From Nitrososphaerota archaeon (GTDB taxonomy: Archaea; Thermoproteota; Nitrososphaeria_A; Caldarchaeales; Calditenuaceae): a DNA stretch of 64,000 bases. The position numbers were made by a program, and so were the translations under genes. The DNA lies in assembly GCA_033581555.1 (NCBI GenBank), contig JAVQSZ010000002.1:128001-192000 (forward strand). Direction: 5' to 3'. The stretch's first letter is position 1. Each line of letters opens with the position of its first letter. Shown here piece after piece: positions 49,128-60,317 of the stretch. The notes under the pieces are model-generated. The model had not been told where the DNA came from and searched no databases. It was given only the letters and a program-made list of their open reading frames with translations.

Positions 49128-49931
49128 TTACTGCGGCGCCACCAGCGTCCCCTTCGGCTCCTCCAGGACCTTCAGTGGGTCCTCCACGAGCCCGTTGGAG
49201 ATGATGGCCAACTTCACGCCGAACGAGACGGCCTCACCGGCCAGCATCAGCTTCCTGTTCATTCCGGGACCGATCCGCTGCGACAGGTCGAACGCCTCTT
49301 GAGGCGTCAGCCTCCCCACGACTTCCCCGTCCACGAGGACCCCGTCGACGTCGCTGAGCAGCACTAGGGCGTCGGCCGAGATCGCCTTCGCGATGGAGGT
49401 CGCTGCCTGGTCTCCGTCGACGTTCAGGAGCTCTCCCTCCTCGCTGACCGCGATGGGCGCGACGACGACCGTGAACCCGCTCGAGGTCAGGAGCTCCAGG
49501 AGTTGGGGCGAGACGGAGGTGATCATCCCGGTGTACCCGCCCTCGATGACGCGCTTCCTCCCCCGGTCGTCGACCACGACTATCCTCTTCTTCCTCTCCG
49601 CCGTGAGCAGGCCGCCGTCGGCACCCGAGATCCCGACCGCCTTCACGCCGAGCTTCCTGAGGGCCGCGACGATCTCCTTGTTCAGCTTCCCTGCCATCAC
49701 CATGACGTAGACCTCGAGCTCCTGGAGGTCCGTGTACCTGCTCCTAATGCCCTGCGGCGATGTCACGAACTTCGGCTCGATCCCCATGCGCCTGGAGTAC
49801 TCGCTGACGACGTCACCCCCTCCGTGGACGAAGACGATCCTGTGGGAGCTGGAGCGCCTCGCGATGCTCTCCGCGATCCCCGTGAGGTTCCCGAGGAGCG
49901 CCCTGCCCCCTGCTTTCACGACGACCCTCAC
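49128..49931 (-). CDS. lysZ: [LysW]-aminoadipate/glutamate kinase
   Basis: K.GG, VHGGG, SP.G..SRYTD, GGYTG, LNVDGD. Confidence 0.85.
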   Translation of the reverse strand: MRVVVKAGGRALLGNLTGIAESIARRSSSHRIVFVHGGGDVVSEYSRRMGIEPKFVTSPQGIRSRYTDLQELEVYVMVMAGKLNKEIVAALRKLGVKAVGISGADGGLLTAERKKRIVVVDDRGRKRVIEGGYTGMITSVSPQLLELLTSSGFTVVVAPIAVSEEGELLNVDGDQAATSIAKAISADALVLLSDVDGVLVDGEVVGRLTPQEAFDLSQRIGPGMNRKLMLAGEAVSFGVKLAIISNGLVEDPLKVLEEPKGTLVAPQ

Positions 49932-51073
49932 GCCCGAGTCGCCTCGCCGCTGTCCGGGAGGACCAGGTCTTTGCCCGTCCTCAGCACCGGGGGTATCACG
50001 CCAGCCCTGACCGCGTGGTCAGCCAGCACCATCGCCACGACCGACTCGACGACCGGGACGGCCCTAGGCCCTATCACCGGGTCGTGCCTACCAGTCACCA
50101 CGACCTCCTCCTCGGACATCGTGCGGACGTTCAGGGTCCGTTGTGGGAGCGCGATAGAGGCTGGAGGCTTGAAGGCGACCCTCACCACGATCTCCCTCCC
50201 TGTCGAGAGCCCCCCGACGATCCCGCCGGCGTTGTTGGTCACCGGGACAACCCTTCCGTCGACGAGCCCAAGCGGGTCGTTGTTCAGGGAGCCCCGCGAG
50301 TTCACCACCCCAAAGCCCGCCCCGAACTCGATGCCCTTGACCGCAGGGATCGAGAGGAGGGCCCTCGCCAAGTCCGAGTCCAAGGAGGAGAAGACCGGCT
50401 CGCCGAGGCCCGGGGGGACGTTGAGAACCAGGCACTCGACGAGGCTGCCGACGCTGTCGCCGGACCCCCTCGCCTCCAGCACGACCTGCCTCATCCTCTC
50501 CGCCGCCTCCTCGTCGGGGCACCTAAGGTCGTTCGAGTACCGCTTGGCCCTTATCGCGTCCACGGGGAGCTCCCTCGCCTCTACGCCGTCGATCCTCTTC
50601 ACGTAGGCGAGCACCTCGGTCCCTAGGGTCACCCTTAGAAGCTTAATCGCCACCGCGCCTGCCATCACGAACCCGGTGGTTATCCTCCCGGAAAACCTCC
50701 CGCCTCCGCGCCAGTCATTGAACCCGCCGTACTTGACCCTCGCGAAGTAATCGGCGTGTCCTGGCCTCGGCGTCTCGAGCAGCCTCTTGTAGCTCCTAGA
50801 GTCGACGTCCTTGTTCCAGACCACCATCGCGATCGGCGCCCCGGTCGTGAAACCGTTGAAGACGCCGCTGAGGATCTCGACCCTGTCCTCCTCTCTCCTC
50901 TGGCTCGCGACCAGCGACTGGCCTGGCCTCCTCAGGTCTAGCAGAGGCTGAACGTCCTCCTCTGAGAGCGGTAGGCCTGCGGGGCAGCCGTCGATCACGA
51001 CGCCGACGCACCTCCCGTGGCTCTCGCCGAAGCTCGTCACGACGAATCTCTCGCCGATCGAGTTACCTGCCAA
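49928..51073 (-). CDS. aroC: Chorismate synthase
   Basis: FGESHG, RRPGQS, PRPGHAD, GGGR.S.R, NNAGG..GG, GRHDP. Confidence 0.96.
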   Translation of the reverse strand: MAGNSIGERFVVTSFGESHGRCVGVVIDGCPAGLPLSEEDVQPLLDLRRPGQSLVASQRREEDRVEILSGVFNGFTTGAPIAMVVWNKDVDSRSYKRLLETPRPGHADYFARVKYGGFNDWRGGGRFSGRITTGFVMAGAVAIKLLRVTLGTEVLAYVKRIDGVEARELPVDAIRAKRYSNDLRCPDEEAAERMRQVVLEARGSGDSVGSLVECLVLNVPPGLGEPVFSSLDSDLARALLSIPAVKGIEFGAGFGVVNSRGSLNNDPLGLVDGRVVPVTNNAGGIVGGLSTGREIVVRVAFKPPASIALPQRTLNVRTMSEEEVVVTGRHDPVIGPRAVPVVESVVAMVLADHAVRAGVIPPVLRTGKDLVLPDSGEATRA

Positions 51074-52343
51074 CCTGCACGACCTCCAGCCCTACGCTCG
51101 AGACGTCCCTCAAGAAGTCTGGGTAAGAGACGTCGACCGAGCCGATCCCGAGCGTCTTCACCCTCCCGTGCGTCGCAGCGGAGAGGACCGCGAAGGCCAT
51201 GAAGAGCCTGTGGTCGTCGCGCGGGTCCAAGACGACCTCGTTCACGGTCCCAGGTGAGACCGAGAGCCCGTCTTCGAACTCCTCGACGATCGCGCCCGCC
51301 TTTGCCAGCTCGGACGCGAGGACCGAGACCCTGTCGCTCTCCTTGAACCTCGCGTGCCTCACCCCCCTCACTATGGTCTTCCCGTCGGCGAAGAAGCCCA
51401 GGACCGCGACGACCGGGAGCAGGTCCGGTGAGTCCCTTAGGTCGACCTCGACCCCCTCGAGGGCCGAGCCGCGAGTCTCGACGTATTCCTCGCCCCGCCT
51501 GACGCTCGCGCCCATCGCCTCCAGTATCTCGAGGATTGCGGAGTCGGCTTGGGGGAGAGCGGGGTCCAGCCCCGCGACGCGGACGTATCCTCCGAGGAGG
51601 ACCGGAATGACCAGTAAGAACGCCGCGAGGCCGTAATCGCCGGGGACCGTGAACCTCCCACGCTTGAGCGCGCGACCTCCGACCACCAGCCGCTTACCGT
51701 CGAACTCTGCCCTTCCCCCGAAGGCCCTGACGGTCTCCAACGTCGCCGCGACGTAGGGCCCCGAGACCAGCTCCCCGACGACCTCAACCTCGGTCACCTC
51801 CTCGCACGCGGAGCCCGCGATAGCCAGCGCGGAGAGGAATTGGCTGCTGACGTCGCCTCTGATGCTGCACCGGCCTCCCAACGAGCCCTTTCCCTTCACG
51901 ACGACCGGAGCGTAACCGTTCCCCCTCGTCGACCAGGCCTCGACGCCGAGCTGGCCCAAAGCGTCCAGGAGCGGCTGCATCGGCCTCCTCCTCAAGCTCG
52001 CGTCTCCGGTGAGGACCGTGTGACCTCTGCTGACGAGAGCCGCGACGCCGGTCGCGATTCTGAGCGTCGTGCCGGAGTTCATCGCGTCGATCACGTCCTC
52101 AGGGACCTCGGGCCAGCCTCCCTCGATCACCGCCGCCTCACCCATGAGCTCGACGTCGGCGCCGAACGCCCTCACAGCGCCGATGGTCGCCCTCGTGTCC
52201 CTTGAGACCAACGGGTTGTAGACGACGCTCTCGCCCTGGGCCAGCGAGGCCATGAAGACCGCCCTGTGAGTGTAGCTCTTCGAAGGAGGGGCCTTGACCT
52301 CTCCGCCGATGCTTTCTCTCGGCCTCAATGCGACCGCTCCCAT
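51063..52343 (-). CDS. aroA: EPSP synthase
   Basis: PPSKS.THR, NSGTT.R, RRPM, SSQF.S, PGD, R.KESDR, DHR. Confidence 0.95.
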   Translation of the reverse strand: MGAVALRPRESIGGEVKAPPSKSYTHRAVFMASLAQGESVVYNPLVSRDTRATIGAVRAFGADVELMGEAAVIEGGWPEVPEDVIDAMNSGTTLRIATGVAALVSRGHTVLTGDASLRRRPMQPLLDALGQLGVEAWSTRGNGYAPVVVKGKGSLGGRCSIRGDVSSQFLSALAIAGSACEEVTEVEVVGELVSGPYVAATLETVRAFGGRAEFDGKRLVVGGRALKRGRFTVPGDYGLAAFLLVIPVLLGGYVRVAGLDPALPQADSAILEILEAMGASVRRGEEYVETRGSALEGVEVDLRDSPDLLPVVAVLGFFADGKTIVRGVRHARFKESDRVSVLASELAKAGAIVEEFEDGLSVSPGTVNEVVLDPRDDHRLFMAFAVLSAATHGRVKTLGIGSVDVSYPDFLRDVSSVGLEVVQVGR

Positions 52344-53179
52344 CCAACCGACCTCCGCAGCGCGAACCTCCCGATCGCTTCCATCCATTTGTACCCGACC
52401 TCGGCCCCGGTCCAGAGCCTGAACGACGCGGCCGCTTGCCTCGCGAGGACCTCCACGCCGTCGACCAGCTCGAGCCCCCTCGCCGAAGCGAGCCGAGACA
52501 TCGGCGAACCCCTCGGCCCGTAGACGAGGTCGACGAGCAGCGCGCCGTCCTTGAGGTCCTCAGGCCCGATCGGGAGCTCAGCGCCCTCCACGAGCCCGAC
52601 GGGTATCGTGTTGACCACGACTTGTGACCCCTTCGCGGCCTCCTTTGCCTTCTCGAGGGGTACCGCCGCGAGCCTCGACTCTCCTAACGTCCTGAACCTC
52701 TCGACCAGCTCCTGGGCCTTGGCGAGCGTCCTGTTGGCGATCGAGACGGATCCGGCCCCGAGCGCGATCAGAGCCGCGACCGCCGCCCTCGCGGACCCCC
52801 CTGCCCCAATGACGAGGGCGTCGAACCCGCTCCCGATCGAACGCTCAGCAACGGCCTCCCTGATCGCGACGTAGTCGGTGTTGTGTCCTTCCCACCCGTC
52901 GTCCGACCTCTTGAGCGCGTTCACGGCCCCGATCAGCGCAGAGTCCTCGGACAGACTGACAGCGTGCTTCGCCGCCTCCTCTTTGTACGGGATCGTCACG
53001 TTCAGTCCAGCGAACCCGAGTTCGTGAAGGGCCCTCATCACAGAGCCGACCGCGCCCGATGACCTGACGTGAACGGTCACGTAACTCAGGTCGAGCCCGA
53101 GCCTCCTCGCGGTTAACGTGTGGATCAGGGGCGACACCGAGTGCGAGATCGGGTCACCGATCAGCCCGAGCAGGGGCAA
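52325..53179 (-). CDS. aroE: Shikimate dehydrogenase
   Basis: G.PI.HS.SP..H, NVT.PYK, GAVN, NTD, GAGG.ARA. Confidence 0.93.
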   Translation of the reverse strand: MPLLGLIGDPISHSVSPLIHTLTARRLGLDLSYVTVHVRSSGAVGSVMRALHELGFAGLNVTIPYKEEAAKHAVSLSEDSALIGAVNALKRSDDGWEGHNTDYVAIREAVAERSIGSGFDALVIGAGGSARAAVAALIALGAGSVSIANRTLAKAQELVERFRTLGESRLAAVPLEKAKEAAKGSQVVVNTIPVGLVEGAELPIGPEDLKDGALLVDLVYGPRGSPMSRLASARGLELVDGVEVLARQAAASFRLWTGAEVGYKWMEAIGRFALRRSVGWERSH

Positions 53180-53876
53180 GTGCCACCACCCGATTAAGGA
53201 GCTCCGCCAAGAGCTTCGTCTCAGGGACGCTCAGCTGTCCAGGTGCGACCTCTTTCCCCTTCAGCGCTGCGTAGGTGAAGGGCGCGCCGAGGACCAGCGA
53301 GAGCGGCCTCGTCAGGCTCCATCTCTCGCCGACCGAGAACGAGACGAGCCCTCCCCTCGACCACTCGACCTCCCGGTAAAGGGCGAGCGTCGAGGCGGCT
53401 CCCGCAGCGGTGACCGGCGAAGTGACCAGCTTCACTAGATCGCCGTGGGACCTCAGGGCCTCCGCGAGCTTGACGAGCTCCGCGACGCTAGGGTCTCCGG
53501 GCCCGAGGTGGACAGACGCGATCACCCTTTCCGCCCCGAGCTCAGAGGCGAGCGACCTAACCTCGCGGATCATGAGGGAAGTCCTGTCGAGGTCCACGAG
53601 GTCAGCGTGCTCGGAGACAGCCCTCAAGACCTCGACGAGCGGCTTTGGTCCCCCGCTATAGCGACCGCCCTCCTCCCTCGACCTGACGGTAGCGATCACC
53701 GTCGCGCCCAGGTCCTTCGCGCCATCCACGACGGACGCGGCGAGGTTTAGCTCAGCGAGCGCGTCGAGCCTGAGCTCGATCAGGTCGGCGCCCTCCTCCA
53801 GCGCTCTACTCGTCAAGGCCTTGAAGCCCTCAGCGGTCTCAGACATGAGGCTCGCGCAGACCTTGAAGGCCCCCAA
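53154..53876 (-). CDS. aroD: 3-dehydroquinate dehydratase type I
   Basis: E.RLD, T.R...EGG, S.H, K, APGQ; operon context. Confidence 0.88.
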   Translation of the reverse strand: MGAFKVCASLMSETAEGFKALTSRALEEGADLIELRLDALAELNLAASVVDGAKDLGATVIATVRSREEGGRYSGGPKPLVEVLRAVSEHADLVDLDRTSLMIREVRSLASELGAERVIASVHLGPGDPSVAELVKLAEALRSHGDLVKLVTSPVTAAGAASTLALYREVEWSRGGLVSFSVGERWSLTRPLSLVLGAPFTYAALKGKEVAPGQLSVPETKLLAELLNRVVALAPARADR

Positions 53877-53878
53877 GC

Positions 53879-54868
53879 TCAGACCTCCTCGATGAACTCG
53901 TCGACCGCGGTGCCCATGTGTCGGGCGGCAGCGCCCGACGTCCAGACGAGCACCCTGTCGCCCTCAGAGATCGAGGTCACGTCGAGTAGTTCGCCGTCCG
54001 GAGAGACGAGCCTTATGGTCTCCGCGGCCTGGAGCGCCACAGAGCCCGTCATCCCGTCGACCTCGGCGACGACGTTCGCGAGCGGCCTCCTCTCGACCTT
54101 CACCCTACCCACCGAGACCACCCTGCACCTTCCGTCCCTCGAGACCGCGAGGACCCTGCTCCCTGACCTCAGCTCCGAGAGGTAGTTCGTCCTCCCGCCG
54201 GGAGCCAGGACGTAGCAGTGGACTGAGCCCGCGTTGACCCTGAAGGGCCTCGGCGGGGTCAGCCTGCTCCCGACCGACTCGCTGTGAACGAGGAAGAGCA
54301 TCCTGGACATGTTCCCCACGAGCATCCCCTCGCCGACCCTGAGGATCGAGGTCGTGTCGACGCATGCCCTCTCGCCGAGCCCAAGCCCGACGACCTCCCT
54401 AACCTCTGCCTCCCTCAGCTCGAGCCTCTGAGGGGTGGAGAGCAGGTCCCTGATCACCTTCAGCTCCCCGAGCAGCTCCCTCCCGACCACGAGGCCGTCC
54501 ACGCCCGACTCTAGGGCTCCAGCGACCAGCTCGACCTCTTGGAGCGACCTCACCCTCGCGAGGACCTTCACCCCGGAGCCCTGAAGGGCCGCGATGACGT
54601 TCTCCAGCGCGATCACCTTGAGGTCCTCGGGCTCGACGAGGACGGCCTGAACGCCAGAGCTCGCCATCGACCTCAGCGCCTCCACGTCCGACTGGTCCCT
54701 GACCTTGGCGATCCTGAGGTTCCTCTCGAAGACGTACGATCTCGCCGCCAGATCCGGTGACTCCGCGGCAGGTACGAGGACCGCGTCGGCGCCCAGCTCC
54801 AGCGCCTCCCTCGCCTCGAGCTCGGACCCGGCCTCGACAACCAGCTCCTTGTGCCTACCCCTGGACAA
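53879..54868 (-). CDS. 3-dehydroquinate synthase II (AroB')
   Basis: I.LEN.IA, R.CVDT, GEG.LVG, RPFRVNAG.VH.Y, YL.EL, GR.K.E.RP, ARH.G. Confidence 0.92.
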   Translation of the reverse strand: MSRGRHKELVVEAGSELEAREALELGADAVLVPAAESPDLAARSYVFERNLRIAKVRDQSDVEALRSMASSGVQAVLVEPEDLKVIALENVIAALQGSGVKVLARVRSLQEVELVAGALESGVDGLVVGRELLGELKVIRDLLSTPQRLELREAEVREVVGLGLGERACVDTTSILRVGEGMLVGNMSRMLFLVHSESVGSRLTPPRPFRVNAGSVHCYVLAPGGRTNYLSELRSGSRVLAVSRDGRCRVVSVGRVKVERRPLANVVAEVDGMTGSVALQAAETIRLVSPDGELLDVTSISEGDRVLVWTSGAAARHMGTAVDEFIEEV

Positions 54869-55640
54869 CCCTTAGAGCCTCCTCAACGGTCCTGCCCTCG
54901 ATCACGATCCTCCTCAGAGCCGCGACGATCGATCGAGGCCTGTCGTGCATGAAGACGTTCCTTCCGATCGTGACCCCCATCGCGCCCGCCTTCATCGCGC
55001 CGTAGGCCATCTCCAGGACATCGACGTCGCTCTCGGACTTCGGGCCGCCCGCCATCACCACGGGCGCTGGGCAGGACTCGACCACAGCCCTGAAGGTCTC
55101 CGGTGAGCCAGTGTAAGGCACCTTCACGACGTCAGCGCCAAGCTCTGCGCCGACCCTCGCGACGTGGGCGATCACCTTCGGGTCGCTCGGGTCCTTGACG
55201 TTCTCGCCCCTCGGATACATCATCGCGATCAGGGGCATCCCGTAGTCGTCGCACGCGTCCGCGACCCTCCCGAGCTTCTCGAGCATCTGGGGCTCTGCCC
55301 TGCTGCCGATGTTTACATGGACCGAGACCGCGTCTGCTCCGAGCCTGATCGCGTTCACGACCTCGCCCACGAGGACCTTCCAGTTCGGATCTGGACCTAA
55401 CGACGTGCTCCCCGAGAGGTGGACTATGTGACCTATCCTCGGGGGCCTCGGCATGTGCTTCAGGATCCCCTTGTGGGTCAGGACCGCGGTCCCGCCTCCC
55501 AGCTCGACTTCCTCGATCGTCCGGTAGATCCTGTCGAGACCTTTCACGGGTCCAGTTGAGACCGCGTGGTCCATCGGCACGCAGAGCATCCTCCCGGACT
55601 CGGTGATCCTCGAGAGCCTCACCTGCTTGCCTGAGACCAC
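54855..55640 (-). CDS. 2-amino-3,7-dideoxy-D-threo-hept-6-ulosonate synthase (AroA')
   Basis: PMDH, GADAVS.HVN.G, MMYPRG, ELGAD.VK..YTG, AGG.K, GRN.F; adjacent to AroB'. Confidence 0.92.
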   Translation of the reverse strand: MVSGKQVRLSRITESGRMLCVPMDHAVSTGPVKGLDRIYRTIEEVELGGGTAVLTHKGILKHMPRPPRIGHIVHLSGSTSLGPDPNWKVLVGEVVNAIRLGADAVSVHVNIGSRAEPQMLEKLGRVADACDDYGMPLIAMMYPRGENVKDPSDPKVIAHVARVGAELGADVVKVPYTGSPETFRAVVESCPAPVVMAGGPKSESDVDVLEMAYGAMKAGAMGVTIGRNVFMHDRPRSIVAALRRIVIEGRTVEEALRVVQG

Positions 55641-55641
55641 C

Positions 55642-56694
55642 TCACACCAACCTCCCCGTAGCGTGGGCCAGCTCGGCAGTCAGGATCGCTATCCCCGCGG
55701 CTCCCCTGACGAGGTTGTTGCTCAGCGAGACGAACCTGATCGTCCTCTCCCTCGCTCCCTTCCTCAACCTCCCGACGAAGACCGGCATGCCCCTCACGTC
55801 GCCCGCTTCTGCGTCGAGCCTCGGCTGAGGCCTGTCGGGCTCGCTCATCACAACGATCGGCCTTCGCGGCGCCGTCGGGAGCTCCAGCCTCTGCGGTAGG
55901 CCCTCGAAGGAGCTCAGCGCCTCGACTGCATCCTCGAGCCTGAAGTCCCTCCCGAGCTCGACTGAGACGGACGCGAGGTGGCCGACCAGCGTCGGGACCC
56001 GCGTGCAAGTGGCGTCGACCTCGAACCCAGCCGGCTCGACCCTGCCGTCCGCGAGCCTCCCCAGTATCTTCTTCGGCTCCGTCGAGACCTTCTCCTCCTC
56101 TCCCCTGATGTACGGGATCACGTTGCCGAGGATCGCCATAGAGGGGACGCCGTTGTAACCAGCTCCTGAGATGGACTGCATCGTCACGACGTCGACGTGC
56201 CTCACGCCGAACGCGTCGACGAGCGGCTTTAGGGGTAAGACGAAGGTCAGGGTCGTGCAGTTGGGCGTCGTCACGATGAAGCCGTCCCATCCCCTTCTCC
56301 TCCTCTGGACCTCGATCAGGTCGAGGTGGTCGGGGTTCACCTCTGGGACCATGAGCGGCACGTCGTCTTGGTACCTGTGAGCAGAGGCGTCGGAGAAGAC
56401 CGGGAAGCCGGCCCTCGCGAACCCCGGCTCGATGGTCCTCGCAGCCTCGGTAGGGAGGCAGCTGAAGACCAGGTCGACGTCGAACCTCTTCGGGTCCGAC
56501 GGCAGCACCTCTAGGTCCCTGAGCCTCTCTGGCACCTCGCCCCTCCCCCCGTAAGCCTCGGCCAACCTCCTCCCGACCGTCGTGTTCCCTGAGACGGCGG
56601 AGACCTCGAACCATGGATGCCCGTCCAGCATCCTCAGGTAGATCTGCCCGACCATGCCCGTAGCTCCCAGGACACCCACCTTCAACTTGCCCAA
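55642..56694 (-). CDS. asd: Aspartate-semialdehyde dehydrogenase
   Basis: GATG.VGQ, PEVN, PNCT, QS.SGAG, RVP...GH, N..RGAA; SD-like GGGGTGA. Confidence 0.95.
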   Translation of the reverse strand: MGKLKVGVLGATGMVGQIYLRMLDGHPWFEVSAVSGNTTVGRRLAEAYGGRGEVPERLRDLEVLPSDPKRFDVDLVFSCLPTEAARTIEPGFARAGFPVFSDASAHRYQDDVPLMVPEVNPDHLDLIEVQRRRRGWDGFIVTTPNCTTLTFVLPLKPLVDAFGVRHVDVVTMQSISGAGYNGVPSMAILGNVIPYIRGEEEKVSTEPKKILGRLADGRVEPAGFEVDATCTRVPTLVGHLASVSVELGRDFRLEDAVEALSSFEGLPQRLELPTAPRRPIVVMSEPDRPQPRLDAEAGDVRGMPVFVGRLRKGARERTIRFVSLSNNLVRGAAGIAILTAELAHATGRLV

Positions 56695-56749
56695 GCACGG
56701 TTCACCCCAGAGACGGAGGCGGAGGGGGCGGGCGCGGGTTCCTTCATCC

Positions 56750-56815
56750 TCAGTTCCCGAAGTAGAAGTAGGGGTAGGTCGTGAACCAGAACGCGTTCAC
56801 CGAGCTCAGGACCAC
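56750..56815 (-). CDS. Aromatic-amino-acid-rich leader peptide of the asd-aro operon (not in ORF track)
   Basis: SD-like GGAGGGGG, GTG start, MVLSSVNAFWFTTYPYFYFGN*: 4 Phe, 3 Tyr, 1 Trp within 11 consecutive codons. Confidence 0.8.
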   Translation of the reverse strand: MVLSSVNAFWFTTYPYFYFGN

Positions 56816-56853
56816 ACCTACCCCCTCCGCTCGGACTGCTCCGAAAAGACCAC

Positions 56854-56861
56854 GATAAAAA
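56854..56861 (-). promoter_or_regulatory. TATA box of the leader-aro transcript
   Basis: TTTTTATC on minus strand, placing the TSS near 56830, just 5' of the leader SD. Confidence 0.5.
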
Positions 56862-56925
56862 CGTGTGGCGAACCTTTTTGCCGCCTGAACCATAAAGCCC
56901 CGGAGTCCGCGCGTAGTTGCGGGTA

Positions 56926-57807
56926 ATGTCGCTGGAGGGCAAGGCGGTCGTCGGAGGGGCGGTGACGGTAGTCAACGCGATACCGACTGGAAAGGGGGCT
57001 GCGCTCGGAATAGGGCTGCGGACGCGGGCGAAGCTCAAGTTGGTCGAGGGCGGGTCCGGCGTGAGGTTCTTGAACGCGGATCGAGTCGGGGACGACAGGG
57101 TCGTCAGGGCGACGGTCGAGGAGGTCCTCAAGTGGTCGGGGACGGGGGAGTACGGCGTCGAGGTCGAGGTGCTCTCAGAGGTCCCGGTGGCAGTCGGGCT
57201 GAAGAGCTCGAGCGCCGCCGCGTCAGCGGTCGCCTTCGCGCTCTTCGACGCGCTCGGACTGCGACCGTCGCCCCAAGAGGCCCTGAGGCTGATCGCGGAG
57301 GCGTCGCTGAGGTCTGGGACGTCGATAACCGGTGCTGCGGACGATGCAGCTGCCTGCTTCATGGGAGGGTTCGTGGTGACCGATAACTCGACCAAGGCGC
57401 TCTTGAGGAGGGTGGAGATCGGGGGCGACCTCGTGGCGGTCGTCTCGGTCCCGAGGGGCAGGAGGACCTACACCTTCGAGTTCAAGCGCGAGCTCCTCGA
57501 CCCGTTCAGGCCGGCGTTCGATGCGGCCTTCGACCTGGCACTCCGCGGTGACCTCTTCGGGGCCATGACCGTCAACGGGCTCGCGATGTCCACGGCCCTC
57601 GGTTACGGCGCCGACGTCATCACGTCCGCGATGAGGAGAGGGGCGCGGTCCTGCTCGATCTCGGGGACCGGGCCAGCGATCGCCGCACTGGTCAGCAGAA
57701 TTGACTCCGGTGCCGTCTCCGAAGCCCTCTCGAGTTACGGCGACGTGATGGTCGTCGAGCTGAACAACGAGCCCGTGACCCTCGGGAGCGGGAGGCGCTG
57801 GCCTTGA
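56926..57807 (+). CDS. aroK: Archaeal shikimate kinase (GHMP family)
   Basis: GA.T.VNA..TG.G, P...GLKSSSA, S.TGA.DD, SGTGP. Confidence 0.92.
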
Positions 57808-58160
57808 GCGAGATGAAGCAGGTGATCGTCGTCCGGGCCGACGTGAGGATGAGCGTCGGGAAGCTCGCCGCCCAAGTAGGACATGCGGCCGTATCCGCGT
57901 TCCTCGAGGCGAGGAGGTCGAGGCCCGAGTGGGCCGAGAGGTGGCTCGAGTCGGGTCAGAAGAAGGTGGTCCTCAAGGTCGGGGGCCTCGACGAACTGCT
58001 GAGCCTCAAGAGGAGGGCGGAGGCGCTGGGGATTCCCGCGGCCCTGATCGAGGACGCCGGGCTCACCGAGCTCGAGCCCGGTACCACGACCGCCTTGGGT
58101 TTGGGACCCGCGCCGTCGGAGCTGATCGACAAAGTGACCGGCTCATTACAGCTCCTCTAG
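57804..58160 (+). CDS. pth2: Peptidyl-tRNA hydrolase Pth2
   Basis: KQV.VVR.D..M..GK.AAQ..HA, GQKK.VLKV, DAG.TE..PGT.T.LG.GP, VTG.L.L. Confidence 0.95.
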
Positions 58161-59209
58161 GTCAGGACCTCCTCGAGCGTCCCCTGCTCCTCGGCCTCCT
58201 TCAGCTCGATCGCGATCCTCCTCCCCATGCTCACCGCCCTGCCAAGCCAGAGCTTCGAGTAGTTCCCGCCCGTCCCCATGTGGGCGTTGGTCCCTCCACC
58301 TATCCTGGGTGCGAAGTCGTAGACGACCGCCTTCAGGTCCGGCGTCACCATGATCTGAAGGGTGAAGGGCCCTATCAAGCCAGGAGGCTCCAACCGCCTT
58401 GAGGCCTCTAAGACCTTTAGCCCGATCTCGTAGCACTCGTTCAGGAGGCTCTCCCTGAGGGTACAGGGGACGTGCCCGACCTCGATCATCGAGTGCGGCA
58501 ACTCGAGTCCCAGCTGAACTTTGGCTGGCAGCCTGGTCAAGCCGTCGAGGTTGGTCTGGATCCTCCTGTCCGCGCTGATGATCTCGAGCCTCCCGTGGAC
58601 CCGACTCCAGAAGAAGTTGACGTTGAAGTGGGCCCCTAGGACCAGCTCCTCCGCGACCGCGGTCCTCAGCCCGTTCTCCGATATCAGACCCGATGAGAGC
58701 GCCGTCCTCACCTTCGCGTTCAGGTCGTCGCGGTCGGTCGCGTAGATGAACGCCCTCTCCTGCGGCCTATTCGCTTCCTGGACCTTAAGGAGCACAGGAC
58801 CTTCGACCTCGTCCAGGTCACTGAAGACCTTAGGCCTCCTGACGTCGGCCTCATCGAGGAGCCTGTAGTAGTTGGACTCTCCGGTCCTCTCCTCCCACCT
58901 CAACATCCTCCTGTTCCCGAAGACAGGGACCCTCAGCTTCCGCTCTATTCCCTCGTAACCGACGTAGACGGCCATGCTCCGGTTCGGGACGACGACGCAC
59001 CCGAGCTCCTCCAGCCTCCTCTGCACTTCATCCCGCAGCATCTCCCTGTAGTCGTTCAGGTCGATGCAGAAGTCCACCAGCCTGGTCAGCGATTTGTAGA
59101 TCAGGTCGCGCCCACTCTTACAGATCGCGACCGTCTCAAGCCCCTCGTCCTTGGCGCCGTCGAAGACGTCGAGCGCCGAGTGTGAAGCGACGCAGGCCAC
59201 GCGGACCAC
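58157..59209 (-). CDS. PurP-like ATP-grasp ligase (DUF1246/DUF1297)
   Basis: ASHSAL.V.DGAK.EG, PNRS, FGNR.ML..EER, DRR.Q.N.DG, GPF.LQ, RI.GG. Confidence 0.85.
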
Positions 59210-59242: not shown

Positions 59243-60265
59243 TCACGTCAGGACCTCTATCAGGCTTCCGGTCTCCGCGGAGACCCTCAGCTCCAGCGCG
59301 ATCCTTCTCCCGACGGTCATGGGCTCGCCGAAGTAGAGGGCGAGATAGGGGCTGCCGTGCTTGAGGTAGACGTTAGTCCCCGCGACTATCCTCCCGCTGA
59401 ACTCAAAGACGTGGACGTTCAGGTCTCTGTCGACGACCGACTCGAGGCAGAAGGGGCCCGCGAAGGGCTGGCCCGTCACCCTCACGACCGCCTCGACGAA
59501 CCTCTCGCCGAGCTCCGCAAAGGTCTCGAGGAGCCTCTCCCTCGGGAAGACCGGGAAGTTCCCGACGACGGTGAAGGTCGGCGAGACCCTCTCAACCACA
59601 CCCATCGGTGCCCTCCTCAATCCGTCAGCGTCCGACTCGTACCTTACGTCGAAGCCCGTGAGCTCGGTCCTCCGGTGGACTGGGGAGTGGAAGAAGTGCG
59701 CGTAGAGCGTCGTGCCGACCACGTACTGTTGGATGATCGGCCGCTCGCCGGGCCTCAGCACGCCCGAGGCACATGCGGTCTCCAGCCCCCTCCGCACCTC
59801 CTCGGGCGAGCTGGCGACGAAGTACCCCCGCCCTCCCCTCGCGCCGGGGAACTTCACGATCACGGGCCCTTCGACCTCCTCGGGCGAGCCGTACTCCTTC
59901 GGGACCGGTATCATGGCCTCCCTGAGGAGCCGCATCTTGGACTCCTGAGAGGACTCTATCGCCAACAGCCTCCTCGACCCGAAGACCGGGATCCTCGTCC
60001 TGACTACGTTCTCGGCGCCCACGTACTCGACGACCGAGCCGTTCGGGACCAGAACGTAGCCCTCTTCGCCGAGCGAGTCCAGCGTCCCGATGCCCTCGTA
60101 GGGCCTCTGATCGAACTTGAGGACCGGGAACCTCCTGTACAGCCTGAGAGCGCGTTCGTCGCCGAAGAGGACTGCCCTGAGGCCCTCCTCGGTCGCGCCG
60201 ATCACCACTTGGACCGCTGAGTGACTCGCGAACGCCGCTATGCCCGGAAGGGATTCCTTAGGCAT
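59243..60265 (-). CDS. purP: PurP AICAR formate ligase-like (DUF1246/DUF1297)
   Basis: ASHSA.Q...GA..EG, P.GS.VEY, GARGGRGYF, D.RYES..DG, GPFCLE, RIVAGTN. Confidence 0.8.
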   Translation of the reverse strand: MPKESLPGIAAFASHSAVQVVIGATEEGLRAVLFGDERALRLYRRFPVLKFDQRPYEGIGTLDSLGEEGYVLVPNGSVVEYVGAENVVRTRIPVFGSRRLLAIESSQESKMRLLREAMIPVPKEYGSPEEVEGPVIVKFPGARGGRGYFVASSPEEVRRGLETACASGVLRPGERPIIQQYVVGTTLYAHFFHSPVHRRTELTGFDVRYESDADGLRRAPMGVVERVSPTFTVVGNFPVFPRERLLETFAELGERFVEAVVRVTGQPFAGPFCLESVVDRDLNVHVFEFSGRIVAGTNVYLKHGSPYLALYFGEPMTVGRRIALELRVSAETGSLIEVLT

Positions 60266-60317
60266 CCGGCTATCCAAAGTTAATCACTTATTAACCTCAG
60301 TTCGCAGGGGCCCCGGA

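Follow-up and report, generated by a model that had tools for sequence, protein, structure and literature searches.

A predicted leader RNA around an aromatic-rich reading frame ahead of the archaeal asd-to-chorismate operon

The operon for the common aromatic pathway in this archaeon is preceded by a short reading frame rich in aromatic codons, and comparative folding indicates that this frame is embedded in a conserved, covarying leader RNA, 117 nt long in the host. We put about even chances on its being a ribosome-sensed leader that serves the common aromatic pathway. The RNA's covariance model (R1) scores 81.6 bits in the host and finds one copy per genome in 18 of the 19 genomes of the family, always before asd. 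asd itself is found in 18 of the 19 genomes, and the one without it is 73% complete. No further copies of the RNA were found elsewhere in the host or its relatives, and the model gave no match in the three sister families within the order (57 genomes, searched under stricter filters). The element is 110-119 nt long across the family. The sequences fall into about five types, here called g1a (G000, which is the host, G002 and G004), g1b (three genomes), g2 (one), g3 (eight) and g4 (three), where g1 to g4 are genera; the family genomes are related, so that counts of genomes overstate their independence. All coordinates below refer to the minus strand and are numbered along the window, the whole 64,000-nt stretch of DNA that was analysed. 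Features of the locus are collected in Table 1.

Table 1. Features of the leader and operon, in window coordinates
Feature	Position	Strand	Basis or remark
Predicted TATA-like box of the leader/asd promoter	56855..56862	-	most A/T-rich 8-mer (7/8)
Predicted folded leader RNA, 117 nt (P1 closing helix, P2, junction with aromatic codons)	56716..56832	-	
P1 5' strand, containing the leader SD GGAGG (56828..56824)	56821..56832	-	10 bp perfect with 56728..56719
P2 5' strand in the register of this subclade, abutting the start codon	56816..56824	-	9 bp with 56779..56771
Leader ORF, GTG (56815..56813) to TGA (56752..56750), 21 codons, 8 aromatic	56750..56815	-	
Aromatic codon cluster (Phe, Trp, Phe ... 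Tyr, Tyr, Phe, Tyr, Phe)	56759..56791	-	
P2 3' strand, the Thr-Tyr-Pro codons	56771..56779	-	9 bp stem
Post-stop stretch extending P1 inward in this subclade, replacing P3	56729..56749	-	minimum-free-energy folds
P1 3' strand, the C-rich tract following the leader stop	56716..56728	-	helix 1: 85.7% of cells paired
asd SD and TTG start	SD 56708..56702; TTG 56694..56692	-	
Operon: asd, ADH synthase, 3-dehydroquinate synthase II, aroD, aroE, aroA, aroC	49928..56694	-	NCBIfam matches

Locus, promoter and leader reading frame

The host assembly consists of 1.43 Mb on 72 contigs, is 90.6% complete and has a G+C content of 63.6%. Its 16S rRNA has a G+C content of 65.6% and a 3' end that reads ...GGAUCACCUCC. 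The organism is uncultured and its DNA is present in hot-spring metagenomes; because of this occurrence and the G+C-rich 16S rRNA, folding was repeated at 70 C. The seven genes of the operon abut or overlap, with asd (55642..56694, minus strand) in first place and its start codon 55 nt downstream of the leader stop. The ADH synthase is 2-amino-3,7-dideoxy-D-threo-hept-6-ulosonate synthase, and together the genes cover the entire archaeal route from aspartate semialdehyde to chorismate, ending with aroC, the gene for chorismate synthase. An archaeal-type shikimate kinase gene is transcribed divergently from the operon. The operon copy is the sole asd detected in the host genome; a second match (G000:C2:23961-24464), 26% identical, looks like an ArgC/LysY-type reductase. 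At the far end, a [LysW]-aminoadipate/glutamate kinase gene (49128..49931, minus strand) overlaps the end of aroC by 4 nt and may share its transcript. Two paralogous reading frames stand side by side at 58157..59209 and 59243..60277 (minus strand), the former of which matches the formate-dependent FAICAR synthase (PurP).

In the host, 22 nt separate the end of the predicted TATA-like box from the start of the folded element. The relatives have a counterpart of this box, at 21-24 nt upstream of the element in g1, g2 and g4 and at 26-32 nt in g3, in which the closing helix P1 begins 4 nt earlier, and the spacing from the box to the 5' end of P1 is fixed in all 17 relatives with enough upstream sequence. 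Transcription is predicted to start at the first base of P1, position 56832 here, in all clades. A longer, 47-codon reading of the leader frame was set aside, as its start lies 5' of the TATA-like box. In contigs from four hot-spring runs, strain variants are found at six sites in the 71 nt upstream of the element (56833..56903), a region made up of the promoter and the spacer to the divergent gene; the 117-nt element itself holds one variant among the four strains, a synonymous Leu change at 56807. In seven g3 loci (L025-L031) the space separating the TATA-like box from the leader ATG also holds a conserved small hairpin, some 25 nt upstream of the ATG and upstream of the predicted transcription start. 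The 5' arm of this hairpin resembles the first P1 bases of genus g1.

A reading frame of 21-29 codons, 4-8 of them aromatic, precedes asd in all 18 asd-bearing genomes of the family, which represent four genera. The host frame had been described as rich in aromatic codons in the initial annotation, and with 8 of 21 codons aromatic this description is accurate. At the three positions that follow the second helix, P2, all 54 codons of the 18 genomes specify Phe or Tyr. Four different codons are used at these places, with the first base fixed, the second A or U and the third C or U, and in one g3 genome a Tyr codon and a Phe codon are swapped in order. The N- and C-terminal parts of the peptide are not conserved across relatives; the frame is nevertheless open, and length differences inside it preserve the reading frame. 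A nearby stop and a start, the latter either with an SD or at the predicted 5' end, are retained in 18 of 18 genomes: a GGAGG-like block stands before the leader start in g1, g2 and g4, and g3 has its ATG at the predicted 5' end, in the manner of a leaderless mRNA. We infer that the leader is translated and that ribosomes stall on it. Fusion of the leader to asd by frameshifting was rejected, as the frame offset is 0, +1 or +2 depending on the genome and only 7 of 18 genomes have an asd frame that extends as far as the aromatic codons. A genome-wide scan of the host (63.6% G+C) for leader ORFs with runs of Trp or His gave noise only.

Outside the family, 65 asd loci of other lineages were searched for small aromatic ORFs upstream of the gene, and five were flagged. 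Two of these turned out to be the host family's own relatives and three are doubtful. One locus (L111), in a record titled uncultured bacterium, has a Phe/Tyr-rich ORF of 16 codons, separated from asd by 48 nt, which may represent a bacterial leader of the aromatic type, or an unrelated leader.

Predicted fold and its conservation

In the predicted folds of all 18 leaders, P1 forms between the G-rich block at the 5' end and the C-rich tract that follows the leader stop. In 15 of the 18, P2 joins the leader start region to the Thr/Ala-Tyr-x-Tyr codons and is stacked on P1 along a continuous 5' strand. A small hairpin enclosing the stop codon, P3, is likewise predicted in 15 of 18 and is absent in G000, G002 and G004. 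P1 and P2 coexist in 15 of the 18 minimum-free-energy folds. Fourteen leaders fold better than all of 200 shuffles, with z scores from -4.4 to -8.6. The four weaker folds are those of the host (z -2.30), G002 (-3.05), G004 (-3.19) and G007 (-1.45). The host value, obtained for a 132-nt leader without P3 and without the family register of P2, is modest and among the weakest in the family, 6 of 200 shuffles being equally good.

The comparative evidence for the fold comes chiefly from P2. When the structure written from the folds was applied to an unfitted MAFFT alignment (A3), 86.3% of the cells could pair, compared with 44-53% in a control in which the partners were slid by 1-3 columns. Nine pairs in A3 have changed on both sides, eight of them in P2, so that 8 of the 15 pairs of P2 in its family register carry compensatory changes. 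None of 500 shuffles of A3 reached the paired fraction or the covariation score of the real alignment, and 7 of 500 reached its count of covarying pairs. The model-fitted alignment, which leans toward the structure, has ten pairs changed on both sides. P1 varies mostly on one side, with one or two pairs changed on both. RNAalifold run on the plain MAFFT alignment recovered just 15 pairs because the C-rich 3' strand was misaligned. A duplex test across clades proved unusable: the G-rich versus C-rich composition dominated the result, and the chosen 5' region cut off the P2 strand of g3. Rfam 15 gave no match at or above the gathering score, and none at all within 56690..56900; elsewhere in 55500..58000 there are just two sub-threshold chance matches.

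The initial annotation of the host sequence had proposed four RNA pairings linking the leader to the asd ribosome-binding site, and all four are present where it had placed them. In pairing (a), 9 bp join the leader SD region (56824..56816) to the Thr-Tyr-Pro codons (56779..56771). Pairing (b), of 10 bp, joins 56830..56821 to the post-stop tract (56728..56719). In pairing (c), 56730..56725 within the C-rich tract can pair instead with 56708..56703 in the asd SD, by a stem that, judged by eye, contains a G-U pair. Pairing (d) has two forms, one of 7 bp between 56787..56781 and the asd SD (56705..56699) and one of 6 bp within the leader (56800..56795 with 56786..56781). Perfect Watson-Crick stems were counted in 2000 dinucleotide shuffles of the 134 nt. 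A stem of at least 9 bp occurs in 90 of these, one of at least 10 bp in 18, and two stems of at least 9 bp in 4, so that (a) and (b) together are unlikely to have arisen by chance, and they are the only ones of the four that exceed it. Stems of at least 7 bp occur in 889 of the 2000 shuffles, which places (d) within chance. Pairings (a) and (b) are real and conserved, being the local forms of the predicted family helices P2 and P1.

The two had further been described as mutually exclusive. This stands for g1a, the subclade of the host, and falls for the rest of the family, in which both helices are predicted in one fold (15 of 18 genomes). In g1a a Pro codon between two Tyr codons creates pairing (a) six columns off the family register of P2, and (a) then competes with P1 for four G (56824..56821). 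Even there, when either is forced, full P1 is more stable than (a): the margin is 3.8-6.8 kcal/mol at 37 C and 5.7-8.0 kcal/mol at 70 C.

The asd ribosome-binding site and rival explanations

The two pairings that would reach the asd SD fared less well than those inside the leader. In the host, shuffles of the asd initiation region match or beat the duplex of pairing (c) in 115 of 300 trials and that of (d) in 72 of 300; both are at chance level, and neither pairing is conserved. In the nearest relative, whose DNA is 87% identical, the asd SD differs by one base; (d) is lost by this change and the SD matches the 16S end better. Across the family, duplexes with the asd site are no better than those with shuffles of that site in 15 of 18 genomes. 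Another candidate, a pseudoknot between the freed P2 5' strand and the linker that precedes asd, rose above shuffles in only 1 of 18 and was rejected.

The proposed link was also put to constrained folding with ribosome footprints masked, the check that the initial annotation had called for. RNAs ran from the predicted 5' end to asd +40, the asd site was taken as -14..+2, the temperatures were 37 C and 70 C, and a ribosome was either stalled on the first or the last aromatic codon or positioned on the stop. At 37 C the energy needed to open the asd site shifted by at most 0.5 kcal/mol in 17 of the 18 RNAs. The exception is the host at 37 C, for which stalling raises the opening energy by 4.1 kcal/mol and so makes the site less accessible; at 70 C the shift is at most 0.6 kcal/mol in all 18. 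The predictions have P1 forming whether a ribosome is stalled on the leader or not. Masking the 5' strand of P1 itself gave results that changed with the RNA used. In short RNAs at 37 C (25 nt of upstream flank, ending at asd +12) the opening energy rose by 1.8 to 15.6 kcal/mol in all ten genomes of g1, g2 and g4. In long RNAs to asd +40 the effect was mixed, from -4.8 to +6.2 kcal/mol (host -1.0), and the eight g3 RNAs gave no consistent effect at either length (-2.5 to +2.4 kcal/mol). Since the outcome depends on where the RNA is cut, it is not robust and we draw no conclusion from it. Taken together, these models do not support a structural route from the state of the leader to the initiation site of asd.

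These results bear directly on the idea that the leader acts by sequestering the asd SD, in which the C-rich tract would pair either with the leader SD block, leaving asd on, or with the asd SD, turning it off, the choice being made by a ribosome on the Tyr codons. Such a switch would make sense of the four G shared by (a) and (b) in g1a, of the rise in opening energy in all ten short RNAs, and of the substantial duplexes formed in g1 between the C-rich strand and the asd site (-10.8 to -15.9 kcal/mol). However, the same mask gave mixed signs in long RNAs and nothing consistent in g3, the duplexes stay at shuffle level and P1 coexists with P2 in most of the family, and within g1a full P1 is favoured over (a) and forcing (a) in G000 and G002 made the asd site more accessible, not less. 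We regard sequestration as improbable. The initial annotation had also noted that no hairpin with a poly-U tail is present, correctly so, no U run from the leader stop to the asd start being longer than 1, and had offered the pyrimidine-rich tract as a site of factor-dependent termination. FttA (aCPSF1), a CPSF73-like protein, is the archaeal termination factor. It could act on the untranslated stretch, with resulting polarity, once the leader ribosome leaves or lags, and the fold could modulate its access. The lack of an intrinsic terminator is in keeping with this, as is a gap before asd that is untranslated for 48-58 nt in g1, g2 and g3 and consists of 56-71% pyrimidine. Yet the C-rich tract lies in P1, as its base-paired 3' side, in 18 of 18 predicted folds, which may speak against free loading of a factor; U-rich signals are lacking, with longest U runs of 1-3 in g1, g2 and g3 (4-5 in g4, from leader stop to asd); and loss of coupling by itself would reduce expression under starvation, the opposite of what a biosynthetic operon calls for. 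We consider termination by a factor at this tract quite unlikely.

A further possibility is that the leader sets the half-life of the mRNA and leaves asd initiation alone, with P1 hiding the 5' end and a stalled ribosome blocking decay in the 5'-to-3' direction. It gains from the position of the predicted transcription start on the first base of P1 in all clades, and from the failure to find an RNA route to the asd site. It loses from the prediction of P1 in both states, which would shield the 5' end whether or not a ribosome stalls. The genome, 90.6% complete, yielded no RNase III gene, which excludes one nuclease only; cleavage of the long P1-P2 duplex by RNase III was rejected on the same finding, that of no RNase III domain. 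We give protection of this kind a slim chance. Least probable of all, in our estimate, is a riboswitch-like sensor of a ligand or protein in which the ORF is incidental. The predicted three-way junction, its conserved bases and the strong folds are what such a sensor might look like, but the junction varies as Phe/Tyr codons would, down to the one swap of Tyr and Phe order, the start and stop are retained in 18 of 18 genomes, and the RNA has no Rfam match.

Proposed mechanism and relation to known leaders

Under the reading that we prefer, that of a ribosome-sensed leader, the transcript would begin at the 5' strand of P1, and a ribosome would load on the leader start co-transcriptionally, before the pairing partner of the start region has been made. 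With Phe-, Tyr- and Trp-tRNAs plentiful, this ribosome would reach the stop and leave, and the RNA would close into its compact fold. In the closed state P1 would hide the leader SD block against the C-rich tract and P2 would hide the start against the Thr/Ala-Tyr-x-Tyr codons, and the leader would therefore be read about once. If these tRNAs were scarce, the ribosome would linger on the codons of the P2 3' strand and of the junction, and so keep P2 open. The leader start would then stay exposed and further ribosomes could load. We infer, for both its output and its sign, that this open, ribosome-filled state would raise expression of asd and the six genes that follow. Because the operon runs from asd to chorismate synthase, a sensor of Phe, Tyr and Trp together would fit it.

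The output would probably lie at the level of ribosome loading or mRNA protection and not of terminator release, the latter being disfavoured because no terminator is present. Sustained translation of the leader, acting on downstream ribosome loading or on mRNA protection, ranks first among the candidates for the output and is the most likely of them. The gap from the leader stop to asd is 48-58 nt in g1, g2 and g3 and 81-84 nt in g4, and the 3' end of P1 lies 21-26 nt from the next start codon in g1 and g3. In the three g4 loci (L033, L034 and L035) the stretch from the leader RNA to asd accommodates one more small ORF, of about 15-17 codons. Its SD abuts the 3' end of P1, and, judged by eye, the peptides are unlike one another and in two of these loci its stop overlaps with the start codon of asd. 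Both the spacing from P1 to the next start and the additional ORF of g4 may bear on the candidate of sustained leader translation.

A more specific proposal, which we make tentatively and consider somewhat unlikely, is that the locus represents an attenuator whose sensing codons are base-paired to the start site of the same leader, forming a translational gate with two states that works in thermophilic archaea with neither terminator nor anti-SD. The state of the gate would be set by the time a ribosome spends on the Tyr, Phe and Trp codons relative to the time needed for the next ribosome to load. The leader would accordingly either snap shut after one reading or remain open and filled with ribosomes.

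Sensing of amino-acid supply through a leader peptide is a textbook bacterial mechanism. In attenuation at trpL and pheL of E. coli the leader segments follow a 1:2/2:3/3:4 pairing scheme, and translational attenuators of the ermC and cat type free a sequestered downstream SD in response to antibiotics. The archaeal leader resembles ermC and cat in that a ribosome stalled in a leader ORF would remodel the RNA without a terminator; it differs in that sequestration of the downstream SD was tested here and not found. With trpL and pheL, as PMC11802643 presents them, it shares an ORF enriched in the regulated amino acids inside the folded 5' leader of a biosynthetic operon. The short ORF and its codon cluster are thus found here, and the mutually exclusive antiterminator and terminator hairpins and the intrinsic terminator are not: no hairpin is followed by a U tract, the helices coexist in 15 of 18 folds instead of alternating, and the closing helix pairs the 5' end with the post-stop tract.

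Among the devices described, the nearest is the aroR leader of Corynebacterium glutamicum. It stands before the aroF operon and has a Phe-Tyr-Phe cluster, and transcription is raised when Phe is limiting (PMC11802643). Both leaders have a short ORF with a cluster of the Phe-Tyr-Phe type ahead of the entry to the common aromatic pathway, and stalling at Phe and Tyr raises aroR expression according to that account (PMC11802643). The differences are that aroR is bacterial and acts by transcription attenuation (PMC11802643), whereas the present leader belongs to an archaeon, has no terminator and precedes an entry route by way of aspartate semialdehyde, and that its sensing codons pair with the leader's own start region. 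A second bacterial parallel is provided by the leaderless polycysteine short ORFs of mycobacteria, in which a stalled ribosome blocks a structure that keeps the next gene's ribosome-binding site sequestered (10.1101/834739). Both have a sensing ORF at the 5' end of an operon that acts, or here would act, on translation without a terminator, and the g3 start is leaderless-like. Unlike the mycobacterial case, no structure sequestering a ribosome-binding site is supported here by the thermodynamic models, and the amino acids and the domain of life are others. A search of full-text literature, with subscription journals outside its scope, returned bacterial work only and no leader-peptide sensing of amino acids in archaea.

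By these comparisons the leader looks like a variant of the known ribosome-sensing leaders, set apart by its archaeal host and its unusual architecture. Its metabolic logic is clear, as Phe, Tyr and Trp codons stand before the whole asd-to-chorismate operon, within a covarying fold and with no terminator, and it precedes a gene that is presumably also required for the synthesis of threonine and methionine. The pairing of sensing codons with the leader's own start region is absent from the classical models and provides a hypothesis that can be tested by mutation. For archaea, in which transcription and translation are coupled and hairpin terminators are lacking, the leader bears on how ribosome speed could be converted into gene control.
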